Shown in pieces: positions 1 through 52,233 of a stretch of DNA of 64,000 nucleotides. Both the position numbers and the translations under genes were made by a program. Position 1 is the first letter of the stretch; each line of letters starts with the position of its first letter. Where the stretch lies: UHGV virus genome UHGV-1484817, one strand, 5' to 3'. The notes under the pieces were generated by a model. It worked only from the letters and a program-made list of their open reading frames with translations. It searched no databases and was not told where the DNA came from. Origin of the DNA: a virus.

Positions 1-982
1 TCACCGTGAAATACCCCGCGTTGATGTACTGCTGGAACGGCACATTTTTACGTCCACCGGACGCTATCAGGATGCCGTTCTCCCGTAACCAGGCAAACAG
101 CGCGTTTTGCTTAAGTCCAACAACCTTTGCAAAATTCCCAATCAGGATCCCTTTAGCTACTGATACCCGGTCGGCAAAATCGACCTTAGGAGCGGCGGCT
201 ACCAGCTGCTGATTTAGCTGGTGGGCTTTCTGTTCCAGAAGCTGCTTTTGTTCAGCCAGTTCGGCAGCCAGGCGTAGGGCTTCTGGTAATGTTTGGGGGA
301 TTGCAACCGGTTGCTGTTCTTTTTGCCGGAAGTAGCTGTCTTCCAGTTTTTCAAAGAATGCCCATGCTTCATTTGTGTCCACGATCTTAGACATGCGTGC
401 AGCGCCGCGCTCTGTCCAGAGTGTAAGGCTTCTGGCGTTCTTACCAACAGAGTAACTTCCGGTTACTCTGTTCTTAAATTCTCTTAATTTTAAACCAGTT
501 AGAAGAAAGTAATGCTTACCTTCTTCAAAGCGGTCAAGGTTGCGAGACAAATTGTTGCGAATATTGGCTTCATCGACCCCATACCCTCTAGCAAGAGTTT
601 CGGTTGTCACGACACGTACTCCCTGCCATTCCAGAACGGGAATTTCATCCGGCTGATTCTGAACAACCACCAGTTCCGATTCCTGAACTGAAGGTGCATA
701 AATTTTTTCTGATTTAACGTTAGTTGCTTTCATTCTGTGTGCCTCCTTGCGTGCTTCGGCTGCGACGGTTGCGTAATTCAGATGACCCTGTTCGAGCAGG
801 TATTCACGGATATCGGTTAGCAGAATGCGGTGAACCGCGTGTTTGTCCTTTCTCCGGTAAAGTTGTTTGGTGATCATGAAGTAGTTGGCAATAACGCCCG
901 GTATATCCCTGGTACTGATACAGGCAGTGTGCTGTTCAATTGCCTCGATCATCTCTTCACGGGTGACTAATGACGTTCTCAT
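1..982 (-). CDS. ant: Antirepressor (Ant-like, KilAC-type C-terminus) paralogue; 3-prime end cut by the window edge
   Basis: Minus-strand frame opens with ATG at 982-980 behind a GGAGG RBS and stays open to the window edge; the first residues (MRTSLVTR...) parallel the 345-aa Ant at 50130-51167. The listed plus-strand ORF 6..212 is its antisense shadow. Confidence 0.7.
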   Translation of the reverse strand, partial: MRTSLVTREEMIEAIEQHTACISTRDIPGVIANYFMITKQLYRRKDKHAVHRILLTDIREYLLEQGHLNYATVAAEARKEAHRMKATNVKSEKIYAPSVQESELVVVQNQPDEIPVLEWQGVRVVTTETLARGYGVDEANIRNNLSRNLDRFEEGKHYFLLTGLKLREFKNRVTGSYSVGKNARSLTLWTERGAARMSKIVDTNEAWAFFEKLEDSYFRQKEQQPVAIPQTLPEALRLAAELAEQKQLLEQKAHQLNQQLVAAAPKVDFADRVSVAKGILIGNFAKVVGLKQNALFAWLRENGILIASGGRKNVPFQQYINAGYFTV

Positions 983-1200
983 AGTCCCTCCTGAGCAGAA
1001 GCGTTAACAGGGAGGCACCAGTAACTGAGAGAATTGCGCGAATCGATAGAAAAGCGGGCAGAGAAAATACAGGGAGCATCCGGAAGCTGAGAACGTGCCT
1101 CATCTTCTGTCGGTGCAATAACGAAGTGATAGTGACGTTTTTGGCAGGAGTAAAAGCGCCAGATAAATTCAGAATGAGCAGGGGTAGGGATAGTAGCCAC
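979..1200 (-). CDS. icd: Icd-like small protein (73 aa) overlapping the ant start
   Basis: 73-aa ORF MATIPTPAHSEF...; its stop overlaps the ant ATG (ATGA); a near-identical paralogue lies at 51164-51385; arrangement matches the P1 immI module. Confidence 0.65.
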   Translation of the reverse strand: MATIPTPAHSEFIWRFYSCQKRHYHFVIAPTEDEARSQLPDAPCIFSARFSIDSRNSLSYWCLPVNASAQEGL

Positions 1201-1204
1201 AATG

Positions 1205-1345
1205 GCAGCCTCCTTTTGCTAATTTAAGGAGCTACCGCGTGAGGTTCCAATCTCAATGGCGGTAGCACTGACTGGGTTGGAACTACCGGCGCAAAAGGGA
1301 ACCGGCCTGCCTTTCGGCAGCCCAGCCAGCACTACCATTGATCTC
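1205..1345 (-). ncRNA. c4: c4-like antisense RNA / structured leader of the immI module (boundaries approximate)
   Basis: Non-coding stretch immediately upstream of icd, almost identical to 51390-51530, with short hairpins (CTGCC-GAAA-GGCAG) and internal repeats; position corresponds to c4 in P1 immI. Confidence 0.4.
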
Positions 1346-1385
1346 TGAGCTAAACGCTACGTATGGCTGTGCGATGGCATGACAC

Positions 1386-1408
1386 AAAAAAAGACGCTTT
1401 TGGCGTCT
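1386..1408 (-). terminator. Rho-independent terminator-like hairpin (minus strand)
   Basis: Minus-strand reading AGACGCCAAAAGCGTCT followed by seven T; lies between the pacB stop and the c4 region. Confidence 0.5.
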
Positions 1409-1540
1409 GTGTCGCCTTTTGCATTATCCGGGGTCTCAATCCCGGCACCCGTTTTAATGAGGTGCCTGATAAGCATAAACCGAAAATGCCTCAAGGCGCA
1501 AGAGGTCAGGTTCAATGTAACATCGGTAGTTAAAAAACAC

Positions 1541-1557
1541 AATTTATTAGAGCAAAT
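1541..1557. promoter_or_regulatory. C1-type operator (Op51-like)
   Basis: AATTTATTAGAGCAAAT, near-perfect reverse complement of the P1 C1 operator consensus ATTGCTCTAATAAATTT; abuts the pacB stop. Confidence 0.6.
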
Positions 1558-1559
1558 AT

Positions 1560-3044
1560 TCATTCGTTAAGCCATGCCAGAGCTTCATCAACCTGCGCTT
1601 CGTCTTCGACGCTAAGCACTTCATCCTGGGGAACATAATCCGCCAGCATAGCGAAACAATATGTATCCCAATGGTCTGGTGAGTGCAGGTTGAGTTTTTT
1701 CTTCATATCCTCCTTACTCATCACCTTCCATTGACCTGCGGAGTTAATCCCTACAGGGATTTTCGACGCTTCCTCAATAGTTTCATTACCCTTATCCAGT
1801 CTCATACGACCAGATTTTACGGCCTCTGCGGCTTGAACGTTGGCATAAGCACGTTTATCAAAGTACAGGCTCTTATCTTCACGGCTATGCATCTTTTTAC
1901 CCCAGCGTATACGCTGTACGGTAATACCATAATACTCGTACATCAGATCCGCCGTTGCTTTACCCAGGCCATCGCCGTCTATCGCTATGGTGATATTTGG
2001 GAATCGCTCAGGATTACATTCTGCGAAAATTTTGGCGGCAAGCTGCGTTTCTGTAACGTCTGTGTATTCCAGCATTCGATAGTTGATTACACGGCGTTTA
2101 TTTCGCTGGCCGGACACCATCATGATATTGATAACGGACTTATCCCGTCCCGTACCACCAGCAACGTCCACACATGCAAGCCAGCCCCATCCTTTTGCAA
2201 TCTTGACTTTCCGCCGCGTTGCACGTTCAACCTCATCACGTCCAAGAAGGAAGCCATCCTGTGATTTAGGGAATAGGCCGCGTACCTTAATCATGTACAT
2301 AGGGTTATCACGCCCGCCGTACTCCGCCAGCTTCATTTTGATAAATGCTGGCGTTACCAACGGTGATTCCTCACTGTTAAGCGTGATCGCCGTATAAACG
2401 CCATCAGGGTTACCAGGACGCTTGGCCAGTTTATGGTGTGTATCGTAGAAATAGCCGCTTGGGCGTGTAGGCTGTGACAGCAATAAGATGCGGTTATCCT
2501 GTCCGGTAAGAGCACCGGTGATGATACCGAAAGCTCTATCACTGACACCGGAGGCTTCATCGATAATATACAGAAGATGATCTGCGTGTTCACCGGCGAG
2601 AGCTTCTTCACTTCCCAGACGAAAGCCCTTCGGTACTACAGTCCATACACCTTTACCAGTAATCTCATAGAAAGCGGTTTCTGTCAGAACAAAATAATCA
2701 GCAAGCCATGGGAAACGGCTGGTGGCAGTAGCCCAGTTTATCTTGATGTACTTGAATATACCGGTCATTACCTGCTGAATTTTGTTCGCAACGATAATGG
2801 CACGGGCACCTGGATACATGATTATGAACAACATGATCATGATAGAAGTCATGTCTGATTTCCCGGTACCGTGACCAGACGAAACAGATGTCTTGCTACC
2901 CTGTTCCTGCACAGACTCAATAATCAGATCCTGCTGCCAGGTAGGTGTTTTGCCGAACAAAACATCAGCGGCAGCAATCCAGTCATAACGATATAGCGCC
3001 ACCAGCTCGCGCCAACGTGGATCCGTTACGCAACTTCTGGCCAT
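1560..3044 (-). CDS. pacB: Terminase large subunit PacB
   Basis: 494-aa ORF translationally coupled to the upstream pacA-like gene; length and gene order pacA-pacB as in P1. Confidence 0.85.
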
Positions 3045-9707: not shown

Positions 9708-10103
9708 TCACTTTCCTTTCCCATGAAGCATAGCCGCGCGGCAGGCATTCCAGCCTCTCACCTCTGCAATAGCGGCAACAGCATCAACCGCGTACATGCT
9801 AAGAGGATTAGGCATTGGTTTTTCTTCCGGTACTACTGGCGCTGGAGGGGCGGCGTAAATACCCTCTATCACTAAATGTTTGCGCTCAAAATCATCTGGC
9901 TCTCGATGATATACGTAACTCCAATCACCAAGGTTATCATTGCGCCTGCAACGGAAACCTATCGGCTCGACTTCCAGCGCTGCCAGAGCAATTCGTGCCA
10001 GTTCTTCCGCTTCTTCTGCTGGCAGTACAACGTTGCTACCAGGTCCGTATGTTTCGCGCCACTGCTTGATTGTCAGCAGTCGCTCTTTGGTTATAGTGGT
10101 CAT
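9708..10103 (-). CDS. Hypothetical protein, MTTIT paralogue family (131 aa)
   Basis: MTTITKERLLTI..., EEAEELARIALAALEVEP, YAAPPAPVVPEE; paralogue of 8193-9275. Confidence 0.55.
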   Translation of the reverse strand: MTTITKERLLTIKQWRETYGPGSNVVLPAEEAEELARIALAALEVEPIGFRCRRNDNLGDWSYVYHREPDDFERKHLVIEGIYAAPPAPVVPEEKPMPNPLSMYAVDAVAAIAEVRGWNACRAAMLHGKGK

Positions 10104-10310: not shown

Positions 10311-10775
10311 TCACCCTCCTTTACCCTGAAGCATGGCGTCGCTCCGCTCTATACTATCCAGCGCGATTCGCAGTGCCTGAATTGTGGTAGTGCTATCGTT
10401 TGGGGCTATTCCATATCGCTCGAATACAGCTAAATGGTTGCGCATAATCTCAGGCGTAAGCTCTTTGTAAGCATAAGCAAGAGGCTCTGATGCATTATCC
10501 GGCACAACCGACGCAGGCGCGGCAGCATAAACAGGAATAACGTCCGCTTGCTCTTTATTGCTTTCATCCGTTAAAGCCCAGAATAATTTCCCGGCCGGAT
10601 GTTTGAAAATATAAGCAACTGGTTCTGCACTATCAGCTTCGCGCCGCTTCTGTAGCTCTGCTGCCATTGCTCTCACGACTTCAACTGGTGCCCTTGCAGC
10701 AAACTCTATGTTGGTGATCAGCTCATTAAGATATTGCTCGCTGGGATACTGTTTCTTATTGGTAATAGTGATCAT
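10311..10775 (-). CDS. Hypothetical protein, MTTIT paralogue family (154 aa)
   Basis: MITITNKK..., YAAAPASVVPD, C-terminal AMLQGKGG resembling AMLHGKGK of 9708-10103. Confidence 0.55.
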   Translation of the reverse strand: MITITNKKQYPSEQYLNELITNIEFAARAPVEVVRAMAAELQKRREADSAEPVAYIFKHPAGKLFWALTDESNKEQADVIPVYAAAPASVVPDNASEPLAYAYKELTPEIMRNHLAVFERYGIAPNDSTTTIQALRIALDSIERSDAMLQGKGG

Positions 10776-11287
10776 GCCGCGTTTCCTTCTTTCTTATTAA
10801 CAATTACACCGTCATATATTTCATTAAGGTGCCCTCTCAACTCCATGCGCCTTAATGCAGATAACATGTAATCGCATTCAACCTGCTTATTTCCAGTAAA
10901 TGGCTTATCGTCAGGATTACCCCAACAGCAATTACCCTTGGGCCACCCATGTACTTTCCGTACTCTTCCGTTAACAACGTGAAGTAATCCCCAGCCAGGT
11001 GGTAAATCCTCAATTGAAATAATTCCCGGCTCACTAATAAAGAATCGCCAGTCGCCCATTCCAAGAGACGGATTTTTACGGAAACGCTTTTTTCTATCTG
11101 CCAACAAGTCAGCACGAGAACACTTCGCCTCTATCAAGCATGATGCTGAACTTCTGAATCCCATAGCATCTGGCTGTTCTCCGGTGCTGGTTACAGCTAT
11201 AAAGCGGTCATGAAAGCAAACCTTGAACCCGTTGCGCTTAAGGAACTTGTACGCAATCTGACAGAGTTCGCGGTGTGTTAACGCCAT
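10772..11287 (-). CDS. Putative PD-(D/E)xK-type nuclease-like protein
   Basis: ORF trimmed to MALTHREL...; contains D...IEAK-like motif; assignment tentative. Confidence 0.45.
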   Translation of the reverse strand: MALTHRELCQIAYKFLKRNGFKVCFHDRFIAVTSTGEQPDAMGFRSSASCLIEAKCSRADLLADRKKRFRKNPSLGMGDWRFFISEPGIISIEDLPPGWGLLHVVNGRVRKVHGWPKGNCCWGNPDDKPFTGNKQVECDYMLSALRRMELRGHLNEIYDGVIVNKKEGNAA

Positions 11288-28167: not shown

Positions 28168-28243
28168 TGGTGGCCCCTACCGGACTTGAACCGGTGACCG
28201 TGCGATTATGAGTCGCCAGCTCTAACCACTGAGCTAAAGGGCC
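28168..28243 (-). tRNA. tRNA-Ile (anticodon CAU, lysidine type)
   Basis: 76 nt with cloverleaf, anticodon loop CTCATAA, T-loop GGTTCAAGTCC, encoded CCA; close to E. coli ileX-type tRNA as I recall it. Confidence 0.8.
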
Positions 28244-30242: not shown

Positions 30243-30318
30243 TTGGTGCCGGTTAACGGACTCGAACCGCTGACATCCTGCTTACAAGGCAGGCGCTCTA
30301 CCAACTGAGCTAAACCGG
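30243..30318 (-). tRNA. tRNA-Thr (anticodon UGU)
   Basis: GCCGGTTTAGCTCAGTTGGTAGAGC...CTTGTAA...GGTTCGAGTCC...CACCA cloverleaf. Confidence 0.85.
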
Positions 30319-30320
30319 CA

Positions 30321-30395
30321 TTGGCGATGGTGGATGGATTCGAACCACCGACCAGTTGGTTAACAGCCAACTGCTCTACCGCTGAGCTACACCAT
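30321..30395 (-). tRNA. tRNA-Asn (anticodon GUU)
   Basis: GATGGTG/CACCATC acceptor stem, anticodon loop CTGTTAA, T-loop TTCGAAT, encoded CCA. Confidence 0.8.
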
Positions 30396-31050
30396 CACTT
30401 GCCGGGTACGTCTCCGGCGAGGGCTTCCACCTCCGTATGCTTTTCGGCGCACCGCGCCCTGGCTGCAATTCGGTAACAGGGGATGCACAACCCTGGCTTC
30501 CAGCGTGATTAGCGCCTTCAGCATGACGGGATATACCCGTAAATTCGTGGAACTGTACCCAAAGTGCTGTTAAGCACCGCTGTTACGCTGAAAAGAAAAC
30601 GCAACAGGAAAGGACGCTGACCAACAGATGGCCCCTTCTCGTTCATCTGGTTAATCACACCAGCGCCCTTACCTGTTGTGCCTCCCCGTTCCCTAATACA
30701 CAGACGGGGACACTCTGCGGTCGATTTTTTGACGGGGGACGACTCATACCCCGTGGCATCTGGCTTCTTAGGCCGCTACCATCATCAGATCATCGTTTGC
30801 ATTTACTTTAATGGTCAGTTTCTAAACCGCCGCAAAGTCGCTAACCATGACGAAAACCCTGAAAAAAACGCCCACCCGAAGATGGGCAAACTGGAAGCTC
30901 GTAACGCACTTCGGCGTTGCCACTTAGGCGCATGGTCAACCTGGCAACTCGGTGGTTTGTCTGGGAGGGCTAGGCCCAGCCATGCTTACCGCCGCGCCTG
31001 TCGCGGCTAACAGCTAAATCGCTCTATAAATCACGATTCATTGAGGCGAT

Positions 31051-47215: not shown

Positions 47216-47812
47216 ATGGCTGTGATTCCAATGTCGTACTCCCCGGGTACTGTCGCTCGTCGATTTTCGATCCTGGACGGAGTTACCATCCAGGGTGTGC
47301 TTTACCAGGTTATATGGGATTCCAAAACCCCATTTGCAGCTGTAATAGAGGCTGCGCCTTCTGTTATCGATGGTGATATGCGGCATAAGGTTGTCGCTAC
47401 TCTTGAACTTCAACGTCGCCCGCAGCTTGAAGGCGTACTGGTAAGGAAGTTCTGGGAGGATAGCGATGTTGCCCAGATTGAAGGTATCGTGGTTGATGGA
47501 ACTGTCCGGGATGTCGGTTTAGCTACTTTTGTTTACGAAACCGTAGCCTCAAAAGCTGGTGTTGTTTTGCTCAGTGATAATGAGCAATACGAAGGTGGAA
47601 AAGCTCTTTGGCAACATATCGCCCGTCGCTCTTCCGAGCTAAAAGTGTTTATCCTCGACACCGATGCCGCTCAGTATTACCCGTTTGACGGCGAACGTGT
47701 TTGCTATGACGGGGTAAGTATTCCTGAATCCGAGATATGGAGTGAACACCCAGATCGAAGTAAGCATGGGGTTGTTCTGGTCGCTGAATCCATAATTGGA
47801 AATGCGGCATAG
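47216..47812 (+). CDS. Hypothetical protein
   Basis: Start at ATG 47216 behind AGGGGGA; ORF track gives the longer 47180 start. Confidence 0.45.
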   Translation: MAVIPMSYSPGTVARRFSILDGVTIQGVLYQVIWDSKTPFAAVIEAAPSVIDGDMRHKVVATLELQRRPQLEGVLVRKFWEDSDVAQIEGIVVDGTVRDVGLATFVYETVASKAGVVLLSDNEQYEGGKALWQHIARRSSELKVFILDTDAAQYYPFDGERVCYDGVSIPESEIWSEHPDRSKHGVVLVAESIIGNAA

Positions 47813-47994
47813 CAGTAAAAAATTCCTTGCTCCTTAAAATGGGAGAGGGTTAATCTACGTATGCTAAGCATAGATATGGCCTCAGATTAATGTTAAGCGT
47901 CTTGCAGGACGCGTAATGTTATCTGGGGCTTTCTTCTATCTGCTTTTCGGGTAATGCCTGAAGCAGATAGCCTCAAGCACCCGCAACGATTGTA

Positions 47995-49165: not shown

Positions 49166-49966
49166 TTAGCGCGTTGCCGCGACAGGTACCAGCACACCAG
49201 CATCAAGCAATCGCTTCATCAGCCACTGCTGACCTTTGCCGGTTATACGAGTCGTGAAAGAAATCCTGCTTCCATTGCTTGTATCGATCACGGTTTCTTT
49301 AAGGGTGAAATACCCACGGGATATGTATTCTTGTTTGGGGACGTTCCTGCGTTCACCGGTTGCGATCAGAATTCCGTTATCACGCAACCAGGTGAAGAGA
49401 TAGTTTTGGCCCAGGCCGAGCACTTTGGCATAGTTGCCGATTAGAACCCCGCTGGCGGTAGCAACGCGTTCGGCGAATTCGACTTTAGGCGCATCCATAA
49501 GCATTTTTTGCTCCAGCCGTTGCTTTTGCTCTGCCAGGTCGGCAGCCAAACGGAGAGCTTCAGGGAGACTCTGCGGAATAGCAGGTTGTAATCTTCCGGC
49601 TCGATAGTCGATAAATGTCTGGTTTACCTTCAGCCGAAACGCGGGAGAAATCCAGCCTGCGTACTCCACAGCGAGCAATTCATGGGCAAACGTACCGCCG
49701 CCACGGCCTTCGAACGAAACTATGCAATTCTGCATAGTTTCTTTTTCAAGCTCTTCGATAAGCTGTTTGGCTGACAGCGTTCTTAGCCATTGAGCTGGCG
49801 CTTTATGGGCACCGAGTCCGCTCGCTCTGTGTAGAGCATTAAGGTTGTAACGGCCAGCGCGGTCGGTCGTAATTTCAACACCACAAATAACAGGCAGAGT
49901 GGTTGAAGGATCGACATTTTGATGAAGGTTTGATATATTCATATCCGCATTGAATGTTTGTTGCAT
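49166..49966 (-). CDS. kilA: KilA protein (KilAC-type C-terminus)
   Basis: 266-aa ORF; C-terminal block ...PEALRLAADLAEQKQRLEQK...PKVEFAERV... shared with the Ant proteins; C1 operator upstream. Confidence 0.75.
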   Translation of the reverse strand: MQQTFNADMNISNLHQNVDPSTTLPVICGVEITTDRAGRYNLNALHRASGLGAHKAPAQWLRTLSAKQLIEELEKETMQNCIVSFEGRGGGTFAHELLAVEYAGWISPAFRLKVNQTFIDYRAGRLQPAIPQSLPEALRLAADLAEQKQRLEQKMLMDAPKVEFAERVATASGVLIGNYAKVLGLGQNYLFTWLRDNGILIATGERRNVPKQEYISRGYFTLKETVIDTSNGSRISFTTRITGKGQQWLMKRLLDAGVLVPVAATR

Positions 49967-50034: not shown

Positions 50035-50051
50035 GAAATTTATTAGAGCAA
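50035..50051. promoter_or_regulatory. C1-type operator (Op53-like) for the kilA-repL operon
   Basis: AAATTTATTAGAGCAAA, 16/17 reverse-orientation match. Confidence 0.6.
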
Positions 50052-50129
50052 ATTTTTCTGACCCGATCCAGATCGGGTTGGACGATCTGCTCAGAAACCT
50101 GCCAGTTTGCTGGCAGGTTTTTTCTTTTG

Positions 50130-51167
50130 TTAACCTATTGCTACTGGTTTTAACAAACCAGCATCAAGTAGCTTGCGAGTTAACCACTGCTGGCCTTTAC
50201 CCGTTAATTGGGGCGTCAGCCGTATCTGGTAGCCATTTTCATCATCCAGCACCACTTCTTTCACCGTGAAATACCCGGCGTTAATGTACTGCTGGCGCGG
50301 TACGTTTTTGCGCGCACCAAAAGCCATGAGAATGCCGTTCTGGCGCAACCATGAGAAAAGGGCGTTTTGCTTAAGTCCAACGACCTTTGCAAAGTTCCCG
50401 ATCAGGATTCCATTGGCCACTGATACCCGGTCGGCAAAATCGACTTTAGGGGCTGCGGCCACCAGCTGTTGTTCCAACTGCATTTTCTGTTCTGCTAACT
50501 CGGCAGCCAGGCGTAGGGCTTCTGGTAATGTCTGGGGGATCGATGGGGTAGGGGAGTTTGCCTGCTGTAATTCTTCCAGTTTGTCGATCAGCGAACGGCG
50601 GACCGCTTTTGACTCGCGCGCGGCGACTCGCAGGGCTTGTTTGAAAGTCATGGTTATGACAAGCATTGATGTTTTGTTCATTTTTTCCACTACACTTTTT
50701 GTGTAGTGCTCACCATCAAGCTCATCGAGTATTTTTTCGATGAATTTGTTGTTCCGAACCTCTGGTTCCCCACATAACTTACGCGCTTCATTGACCATCT
50801 TTAACAGTGTCTGGCTGTCGATTGTGTCTCCAGTGTTGGAGATAACATTCACAGCTGGTGATGGCGTAGCTGAAGCAACAGGTGCTGTTTTTTCAACATT
50901 TAAATTATTACCGGTCATTCTATGTGCCTCCTTTCTCATTTCTGCTGCCACTGTTGCGTAACGTAGACGTCCTTGTTCAATCAAATAATCCCTGATCTCG
51001 GCTATCAGTAGCCTGTTGATCACAGCCTTATCTGTTCGGGTATAAAAACGTCTGGTTATCATGAAATAGTTAGCAATTGCGCCGGGGATCTCCCGTGTCG
51101 GCATACAGGCAGTATGCAAGGCGATCGCTTCGGCTATTTCATTACGGGTGACGAGAGGTGTTTTCAT
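50130..51167 (-). CDS. ant: Antirepressor Ant
   Basis: 345-aa ORF with KilAC-type C-terminus; start overlaps the icd stop; c4-like leader upstream. Confidence 0.8.
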   Translation of the reverse strand: MKTPLVTRNEIAEAIALHTACMPTREIPGAIANYFMITRRFYTRTDKAVINRLLIAEIRDYLIEQGRLRYATVAAEMRKEAHRMTGNNLNVEKTAPVASATPSPAVNVISNTGDTIDSQTLLKMVNEARKLCGEPEVRNNKFIEKILDELDGEHYTKSVVEKMNKTSMLVITMTFKQALRVAARESKAVRRSLIDKLEELQQANSPTPSIPQTLPEALRLAAELAEQKMQLEQQLVAAAPKVDFADRVSVANGILIGNFAKVVGLKQNALFSWLRQNGILMAFGARKNVPRQQYINAGYFTVKEVVLDDENGYQIRLTPQLTGKGQQWLTRKLLDAGLLKPVAIG

Positions 51168-51385
51168 AAACCCCCCTGAACGTCGGCAGAGAAGGGGAGG
51201 CTCCAGTAACTAAGTGAATTGCGCGAGTTAGTTGAAAAACGGGCAGTAAAAATGCAGGGGCCATCAGGCAATTGAGAGCGTGCTTCGTCTTCTGTTGCTG
51301 CGATAACGAAGTGATAGTGGTGTTTTTGGCAGGAGTAAAAGCGCCAGATAAATTCAGGATGAGTAGGGGTAGGGATAGTAGCCAC
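51164..51385 (-). CDS. icd: Icd-like small protein (73 aa)
   Basis: MATIPTPTHPEFIWRFYSCQK...; overlaps the ant start. Confidence 0.65.
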   Translation of the reverse strand: MATIPTPTHPEFIWRFYSCQKHHYHFVIAATEDEARSQLPDGPCIFTARFSTNSRNSLSYWSLPFSADVQGGL

Positions 51386-51389
51386 AATG

Positions 51390-51530
51390 GCAGCCTCCTT
51401 TTGCTAATTTAAGGAGCTACCGCGTGAGGTTCCAATCTCAATGGCGGTAGCACTGACTGGGTTGGAACTACCGGCGCAAAAGGGAACCGGCCTGCCTTTC
51501 GGCAGCCCAGCCAGCACTACCATTGATCTC
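51390..51530 (-). ncRNA. c4: c4-like antisense RNA / structured leader (boundaries approximate)
   Basis: Near-identical to 1205-1345; same hairpins. Confidence 0.4.
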
Positions 51531-51568
51531 GGAGCTATGTGCTACGTATGGTTGTGCGATGGCATGAC

Positions 51569-51593
51569 ACAAAAAAAGACGCTTTTGGCGTCT
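51569..51593 (-). terminator. Rho-independent terminator-like hairpin (minus strand)
   Basis: Same AGACGCCAAAAGCGTCT plus T-run as at 1386-1408. Confidence 0.45.
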
Positions 51594-51882
51594 ATGTCGC
51601 CTTTTGCATTATCCGGGGTTCCAATCCCGGCATCCGTTTTACTAAGATGCCTGTTTAGGATAAACCGAAAATGCATTAGCACGCAAGCAAGTTAATGTAG
51701 CATATGAAGCTAAAAAAATAAAATAATTAGAGCAACTTGCAACCATGTAAATTATTTCTCTGGTAACTAAAATGTATGAGTTTAATTGATATGGGTCAAA
51801 GATTTTGACCATTGCATGGTGAAACTTTATGCTACAAAATGTTATTTTAAGGCGTTTTATCTGTGGCAGGAGATAGTTAATC

Positions 51883-52233
51883 ATGTCATCTGAACATGTT
51901 CGTAAAGGTGTAACAAATGCGAAATTCAATGAAGAGCAATCTAATATTCTCTTTATTGAAATAGGAATTCTGTCAATACTGATAGGTTTAATGTCTAAAT
52001 CATGGTGGGCCTTTGGCGGTTCTTTTCTTGGACTGATTTTTAGTTTAAGAATAAAATTTCTAGCAATACCATTGATGATTGTATTTAGCTTAGTATGGGG
52101 AGCTATTGGCTATAGTATTGGTACTTTGTTTGAATCAACAGCAGCAAGTATTGTTTTGGGGGTAATTGCTTTCCTGAGTGGTTTGGGTACTCATTTTGCT
52201 GCCGTGCAATGGGCAAATGATATTGCAGAATAA
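51883..52233 (+). CDS. Small polytopic membrane protein (AT-rich cassette gene 1)
   Basis: 116-aa ORF with 3-4 predicted TM helices; low GC; preceded by the palindrome GGTCAAAGATTTTGACC at 51794-51810. Confidence 0.5.
   Translation: MSSEHVRKGVTNAKFNEEQSNILFIEIGILSILIGLMSKSWWAFGGSFLGLIFSLRIKFLAIPLMIVFSLVWGAIGYSIGTLFESTAASIVLGVIAFLSGLGTHFAAVQWANDIAE

Follow-up and report, generated by a model that had tools for sequence, protein, structure and literature searches.

An IsrK-family RNA with a putative leaky terminator in the immI-type leaders of a P1/D6-like plasmid prophage

The closest described counterpart of the locus analysed here is the IsrK RNA of Gifsy-1 (Rfam isrK, RF01394), a lambdoid prophage of Salmonella (Hershko-Shalev et al. 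2016, PMC4825925). Gifsy-1 IsrK is a discrete, Hfq-binding RNA of ~77 nt with three hairpins that is closed by a Rho-independent terminator; some transcripts run past it into the isrK-orf45-anrP mRNA, and the downstream order of elements is a C4-like RNA (STnc1160), a small ORF and a translationally coupled antirepressor. STnc1160, a stable RNA in the C4 position, is lost upon deletion of the isrK promoter, and the short IsrK, working in trans on the long RNA, turns on translation of the small ORF and of the coupled antirepressor (PMC4825925). The immI leader of phages P1 and P7 (Rfam c4-a1b1, RF03163) displays the same order of elements as the locus described below. According to the P1 GenBank annotation, on which our statements about P1 rest, this order is Op51, P51a, P51b, a1, b1, c4, a2, b2, icd and ant; the hairpin equivalent to ours is preceded by both mapped promoters and a1/b1 and followed by c4, and a U-run and an outer helix accompany the P1 hairpin between b1 and c4. 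In the satellite phage P4, a processed antisense RNA pairs with repeats up- and downstream of itself, seqA being the structural counterpart of IsrK and CI that of C4 (PMC3632133, PMC4825925); its outcome is the premature termination of a replication operon as opposed to antirepressor control. The phage-plasmid N15 uses a processed CB RNA to control an icd-like/antirepressor operon in its anti-immunity locus (PMC3632133). We draw the likeness to P4 and N15 from the literature, where Barquist et al. equate IsrK-C4 with the seqA-CI pair of P4 and describe the systems of P1, P7 and N15 as structurally similar (PMC3632133). The isrK-c4 arrangement is a known one and not a new element or system: the RNA family is catalogued, and experiments have characterised a homologue's terminator. 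The literature implies a link from isrK to the P1-type immI leader that the annotations of P1-like phages do not show.

Here we report on a stretch of 64,000 nt from the viral genome UHGV-1484817 (henceforth the window), a P1/D6-like plasmid prophage that differs from Gifsy-1 in having a C1 operator over the upstream promoter and in harbouring two modules in one genome, known here from sequence alone. Module 1 resides between pacB and c1, an arrangement shared with phages JL22 and RCS47; in P1 itself the convergent c1 comes immediately after pacB, with no annotated terminator. Module 2 is a D6-like immI module. Two modules per genome are not unusual, since some phiP27-like viral contigs carry two or three isrK-C4 modules in close proximity (L015 at 9813-9898, 10467-10554 and 11125-11210; also L052, L022 and L071), each with its own a/b sequences. 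Elsewhere in the window, a full-length match to the sok antitoxin RNA (RF01794, 97 bits; 47808-47982, minus strand) suggests a hok/sok-type plasmid addiction locus, and three minus-strand tRNA genes (28171-28243, 30247-30319 and 30325-30396; Rfam tRNA, 65-75 bits) are typical of P1-like genomes. One related viral contig carries a match to the type II hammerhead ribozyme (L076, 8171-8237; 61.7 bits, gathering threshold 37).

The feature under study is a short hairpin on the minus strand that is composed of a six-base-pair stem and a five-nucleotide loop (AGACGC/CAAAA/GCGUCU) followed by a U-tract. Its first copy occupies positions 1386-1408 and its second, located by terminator scan and by exact string match, positions 51571-51593. 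An exact search of the whole window finds the 23-nt string AGACGCCAAAAGCGTCTTTTTTT at these two sites and nowhere else, each time on the minus strand, against none expected from 100 shuffles; the original prediction of a hairpin plus T-run at two minus-strand sites is thereby confirmed, save that the interval it gave for the second site, 51569-51593, extended 2 nt too far at the low end. Both hairpins were called by a consensus terminator scan (6-bp stem with four G-C pairs, 5-nt loop, seven T's), a result that is not significant by itself, with two sites against 0.8-0.9 expected per region. The predicted fold has an energy of -7.4 kcal/mol (z = -4.0) that was equalled by 1 of 200 shuffles. 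On the plus strand an A-run precedes the hairpin and no T-run comes after it, so the hairpin is a one-directional signal facing the immunity genes. A G+C-rich stem of 5-10 bp, a short loop and an adjoining U-tract on the transcribed strand are the sequence hallmarks of an intrinsic (Rho-independent) terminator. Hairpin and U-tract probably constitute a Rho-independent terminator that closes an ~80-nt IsrK-family RNA, and the weakness of the hairpin (-7.4 kcal/mol) fits a terminator that is leaky.

The identity of that RNA emerged from an Rfam scan of the whole window, in which the hairpin is the last stem-loop of a full-length isrK match at both sites. The matches span 1387..1465 in module 1 (59 bits) and 51572..51650 in module 2 (58.3 bits), both on the minus strand and both covering model positions 1-77 of 77 with scores above the RF01394 gathering score of 50. 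The terminator stem and U-tail of the isrK model align onto the hairpin at 1386-1408, and the module 1 RNA scores 113 bits with our own covariance model (R1, see below). From 5' to 3' the RNA is laid out as stem 1, a hairpin presenting a1 in its loop, a single-stranded linker with b1, and the terminator; model alignment, minimum-energy folds and covariation in stem 1 and the terminator stem agree on three stem-loops, the last of which is a G+C-rich hairpin with a U-tail. The genomic context is likewise that of isrK, with a C4-type RNA, a 73-aa ORF and an ANT-domain antirepressor gene directly downstream in both modules. The hairpin hence does not stand alone: it forms the 3' terminus of Rfam isrK, a catalogued small RNA that is at the same time the a1/b1 leader module of c4. 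Between the two stem 1 copies (1445-1465 and 51630-51650) there is a compensatory change from C-G to U-A, GGCACC...GGGUGCC in the one and GGCAUC...GGAUGCC in the other.

The c4-a1b1 model reaches 22.3 bits in the window, at 1425-1478, below its gathering threshold of 46.7, while P1 itself is reversed, with 51.0 bits for c4-a1b1 and 35 bits for isrK, below the isrK gathering threshold. In three relatives (L074 at 746-836, L037 at 2889-2976 and L050 at 1232-1321) both families score above their gathering thresholds on one and the same stretch. Because the scores of the window and P1 mirror each other and relatives match both families, 'IsrK' and 'a1/b1 leader of c4' turn out to be labels for two parts of one element that overlap. 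Rfam does not link the two families, c4-a1b1 belonging to clan CL00128 and isrK to none. P1 is a distant member: its immI leader is too diverged from the window for BLAST, and model R1 found no match in P1's own module even at E values up to 1.

A protein-coding reading of the region was considered and rejected. The ORFs at 1357-1563 (minus strand), 1363-1533 (plus) and 1379-1570 (plus) are absent from copy 2, the phage records that do annotate the region do so on opposite strands, and in most relatives it is unannotated. JL22 gp120 and D6 orf84 are hypothetical proteins annotated across the operator-promoter-isrK region, one on each strand; like the window ORF 1357-1563 (minus), they probably represent false gene predictions at a locus that encodes a non-coding RNA.

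Upstream of the RNA, each module carries a match to the P1 C1-operator consensus. In module 1 this is an Op51-like operator at 1540..1556 (minus strand, TTTGCTCTAATAAATTG, two mismatches) in the position of Op51 in P1, and in module 2 it is found at 51720..51736 (minus strand, GTTGCTCTAATTATTTT, three mismatches). The window holds 12 consensus matches in all against 0.29 expected, and one of the others (50036-50052, minus strand, one mismatch) lies just downstream of the module 2 antirepressor gene and ahead of a KilA-N/ANT gene (49166-49966). Two promoters are suggested by positional homology with P1. A P51a-like promoter (TTGTGT N17 TACATT; 1514..1542, minus strand) would correspond to P2c4/P51a, and its -35 element overlaps the C1 operator by 3 nt, as in P1. 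A P51b-like promoter (TTGCGC N18 TATGCT; 1472..1501, minus strand) has a -10 element that ends 7 nt before the start of the isrK model, again as in P1, where the corresponding positions are 2024 for the end of the P51b -10 and 2031 for the start of the model (L003); the block around this -10 is conserved in both copies. Both candidate promoters are poor matches to the consensus that fall below the threshold of the promoter scan, and they are placed by their position. Judged by position, then, the hairpin would lie inside the immI leader, downstream of both candidate promoters and upstream of c4. The C1-operator and C4 RNA matches that flank each copy uphold the earlier claim that the hairpin sits between operator and c4 at both sites, and its placement within the leader, which the original prediction made conditional on an immI promoter at the operator, holds as a positional match to P51a and P51b. 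A separate c4 promoter between hairpin and c4 is unlikely, as this interval comprises only 44 nt in which the scan finds nothing; in Gifsy-1, moreover, the C4-like RNA depends on the isrK promoter (PMC4825925).

The C4 antisense RNA genes begin 44 nt downstream of the isrK match at both sites and are identical in sequence (1255..1342 and 51440..51527, minus strand; RF01695, 76.7 bits each, gathering threshold 45). The IsrK-like RNA contains copies, a1 and b1, of the target sites of c4, and these recur as a2 and b2 just after c4. In module 1, a1 (UUGAGAC, 1433..1439) is presented in the loop of the second hairpin, b1 (GCAAAAGG, 1415..1422) is the same as b2 and complementary to the c4 loop CCUUUUGC, and the a2/b2 region (1212..1250) comprises a2 (UUGGAAC, 1244-1250) and a second GCAAAAGG as b2 (1212-1219), which overlaps the Shine-Dalgarno sequence of the small ORF; all are on the minus strand. 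In module 2, a1 (UUGGAAC, 51618-51624) and b1 (GCAAAAGG, 51600-51607), also on the minus strand, are perfect matches to their c4. The small ORF of module 1 (979..1200, minus strand, GTG start) encodes 73 amino acids and has no Pfam match; its D6 homologue is annotated as Icd-like. Its stop codon overlaps the start of the next gene (ATGA), an antirepressor-type gene with ORF6N and ANT/KilAC domains (1..982, minus strand) that runs off the start of the window and whose homologues in RCS47 and JL22 are annotated as ant and roi. Module 2 encodes the corresponding 73-aa Icd-like ORF at 51164-51385 and an ANT-domain antirepressor at 50130-51167, both on the minus strand within 50130..51385.

The repetition of a2/b2 by a1/b1, and their complementarity to a'/b' of c4, is complete in module 2; in module 1 b1 is matched but a1 is not fully, the pairing of a1 with a' of its own c4 (GUUCCAA) involving one mismatch and one wobble. 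Of 39 related modules, module 1 is the exception and the other 38 have a1 equal to a2 and b1 equal to b2, and across many specificity types a1/b1 are identical to a2/b2 and complementary to a'/b' of the adjacent c4. This is the pattern expected if a short RNA and an mRNA leader compete for the same c4. The mismatch in module 1 sets a1 (UUGAGAC, 1433-1439) against a' of c4 (GUUCCAA, 1280-1281) and a2 (UUGGAAC, 1246-1247), which are of the other type; in a comparison with JL22 across ~1345-1180, only four bases of module 1 are in the state of copy 2, and these are exactly those of a' and a2. The a'/a2 state of module 1 suggests gene conversion of a short patch from module 2, which would have made the two c4 genes identical, or else an assembly artefact. 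Among P1/D6-like plasmid contigs (L006, L014, L024, L028, L054 and others) there are four combinations of two a-types (UUGGAAC or UUGAGAC) with two b-types (GCAAAAGG or GUCAAAGG); a1, a' and a2 change together, as do b1, b' and b2, which suggests a small repertoire of combinable c4 specificities, or immunity types.

The original prediction took the strict conservation of the hairpin in both copies as an argument for function. This argument does not hold, given that the two modules are near-identical from ~1500 to ~1100 (~400 bp, spacer included), the hairpin is no better conserved between them than the surrounding sequence, and the two copies are not independent. Agreement between the window copies is uninformative on its own; the real support comes from covariation across distant relatives. 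Related modules were collected by a pattern scan of viral contigs and phage records, and a covariance model built from an in-register seed of six sequences (R1) aligned 55 of them, 49 of which are distinct. In this alignment, itself fitted to the structure, pairing in the terminator stem reaches 98.3% over the 49 distinct relatives, with five of its six pairs changed on both sides, and the structure as a whole is 96.2% paired compared with 36-51% when partners are slid by 1-3 columns. The relatives contain 21 different hairpin sequences with a median energy of -7.3 kcal/mol (range -5.1 to -11.7), and all 49 have at least five T's in the 8 nt after the stem. Pair counts were not taken from a sequence-only MAFFT alignment of 23 relatives, in which the terminator region was out of register, and automatic parsing of hairpins from minimum-energy folds was superseded after several sequences were mis-parsed. 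An Rfam scan of 15 divergent loci located isrK just upstream of C4 in all but the modules of L040 and L068, which have C4 only. The same order, isrK then C4, is annotated in the Stx2 phage F039, and the unit of isrK, terminator and C4 recurs in unrelated contexts, including Stx phages and phiP27-like prophages.

We propose that both modules employ a leaky terminator, a reading to which we assign a probability of roughly 0.8. In this model the 5' leader of the immI-type operon would be the ~80-nt IsrK-family RNA, with a1 in a hairpin loop and b1 in the single-stranded linker; the two would duplicate a2 and b2, to which c4 RNA binds at the ribosome-binding site in front of the Icd-like ORF. Initiation would occur upstream, at the P51b-like promoter and at the P51a-like promoter that overlaps the operator, and the polymerase would either stop at the hairpin and release a short a1/b1 RNA or read through it, as is to be expected of a hairpin this weak. 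The read-through RNA would serve as the precursor of c4 and subsequently as the mRNA of the Icd-like protein and the antirepressor. The leaky terminator, or attenuator in this broad sense, would thus apportion transcripts between a short RNA able to pair with c4 and a long one from which c4 as well as its target derive. The present analysis contributes the assignment to an RNA family, the structure with its covariation and U-tract, the placement between operator and c4, and the three-way agreement among a1/b1, a'/b' of c4 and a2/b2; by homology with Gifsy-1 we infer that termination with partial read-through, production of the C4 RNA from the isrK promoter only, and action of the short RNA in trans to activate antirepressor translation would extend to these two modules.

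That the short RNA would act as a competitor for c4 in these modules is a further step that we infer from the matching sites. Even in Gifsy-1 competition is not established as the mechanism, since a co-expressed or constitutive C4-like RNA (STnc1160) did not counteract IsrK (PMC4825925), and a simple decoy role is weakened for copy 1 because its a1 does not fully match its own c4. Two features of P1 also speak against the leaky-terminator model: the GenBank annotation lists no terminator at the equivalent position, and the P1 hairpin is weaker (ACCGCA, a 12-nt loop and UGCGGU, followed by AUUUUU).

A second, outer helix surrounds the terminator. It joins the 5-8 nt directly preceding the stem to the nucleotides directly following the U-tract, and it occurs in nearly every relative. 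In module 1 the arms are GACAC (1409..1413) and, downstream of the U-tract, GUGUC (1381..1385), both on the minus strand; in module 2 (51566..51598, minus strand) GACAU at 51594-51598 faces GUGUC at 51566-51570, and the C-to-U change relative to copy 1 leaves a G-U wobble. As this change preserves pairing in RNA, an RNA helix is a better fit than a DNA palindrome. Other types have the arms GAUAC/GUAUC, CGAUA/UAUCG, GCGCACA/UGUGCGC and GCGGACAC/GUGUCCGC, with GGACA/UGUCC in P1. All six pairs of this outer helix are changed on both sides among the relatives, and minimum-energy folding of read-through RNA includes it in almost all of them. In an arm-swap permutation, native arms were more stable than swapped ones (-7.75 versus -4.91 kcal/mol, p ~2e-4); the pairing tested is not imposed by the model, arm positions being read from the inner-stem columns of its alignment, and the sequence types entering this p value are not phylogenetically independent. 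The helix is covered by neither Rfam model, isrK ending at the U-tail and c4-a1b1 before the hairpin, and it is apparently so far undescribed. Since its 3' arm lies beyond the U-tract, the outer helix can exist only in the read-through RNA, which argues that read-through is itself a selected outcome. We consider the odds about even that hairpin and U-tract are enclosed in this second covarying helix such that the read-through RNA folds as one long bulged stem. If so, the read-through RNA at the hairpin itself would be under selection, and the fold might act as a signal for how the c4 precursor is processed or stabilised, or as a lock through which a1/b1 behave differently in the long and the short RNA. 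Part of the conservation of the hairpin could then serve structure and not termination.

How the hairpin might be regulated leads to the strongest of the alternatives, a c4-responsive attenuator of the kind found in P4, in which mature c4 would pair with nascent a1/b1 and alter stopping at the hairpin, so that the synthesis of c4 and of the antirepressor would be subject to feedback. A conceivable route is an antiterminator-like pairing of GGCG (1413-1416) with CGCC (1402-1405), the latter lying in the terminator 5' arm and the first loop base, so that c4 bound at b1 would favour the terminator. The geometry is suitable, with the end of b1 lying 6 nt ahead of the terminator stem; GGCG can pair with CGCC in 90% of cells across the relatives, and several short isoforms adopt this pairing in their minimum-energy folds. 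There is also precedent, in that CI RNA of P4 pairs with seqA and seqC to bring about premature termination, and the authors of the IsrK study raise the same idea for STnc1160 (PMC4825925). The two segments are, however, nearly invariant, with only four cells changed on both sides, and a slide of +2 still leaves 88% paired, which amounts to no real covariation support; the alternative hairpin is weaker than the terminator, and constitutive STnc1160 left the effect of IsrK undiminished in Gifsy-1 (PMC4825925). We view c4-responsive control as a minority possibility. With respect to the original prediction, the terminator-type hairpin on the transcribed strand is retained, and the attenuator role that it offered most likely takes the form of a partial terminator.

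The outer helix invites another, improbable reading, namely that hairpin, U-run and outer helix are purely structural and make up a bulged stem that guides the processing or stability of the c4 precursor with little or no termination. The covariation of all six outer pairs, the arm-swap result and the near-universal presence of the helix in minimum-energy folds count in favour of this reading. An internal loop, on the other hand, needs no U-only sequence, whereas a G+C-rich stem with at least five U's in all 49 relatives is the signature of intrinsic termination, and the Salmonella homologue accumulates as an RNA of ~77 nt that ends at the terminator (PMC4825925). Structural and termination roles are compatible with one another.

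That the hairpin would chiefly insulate the antirepressor module from transcription of upstream operons and so keep read-through from activating it, which the original prediction had offered for pacAB, is improbable too and at best describes a side effect at copy 1, where the hairpin is the first terminator-like site on the same strand after the late pacAB operon (pacB stop at 1560) and where P1 manages without an annotated terminator between pacB and the convergent c1, because at copy 2 the next upstream gene (at 51883) runs the opposite way and leaves no co-directional operon to be blocked, the isrK-terminator-C4 unit is kept in other prophages, Stx and phiP27-like ones among them, transcripts from the module's own promoters, which lie upstream of the hairpin, would meet it as well, and a hairpin of -7.4 kcal/mol makes a poor insulator.

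The leaky-terminator reading has implications for how these prophages are annotated and how their immunity is understood. In P1/D6-like plasmid prophages the ~200 bp between the C1 operator and c4 are best annotated as an IsrK-family RNA with its own terminator and not as a protein gene. Both the outer helix and the matching of a/b specificity types lend themselves to simple tests. The classical a1/b1 leader of P1 immI is tied to the experimentally dissected IsrK switch of Gifsy-1, and the implication is that antirepressor control of the P1 type would include a short, terminated RNA able to pair with c4, a component that is absent from the standard P1 model.
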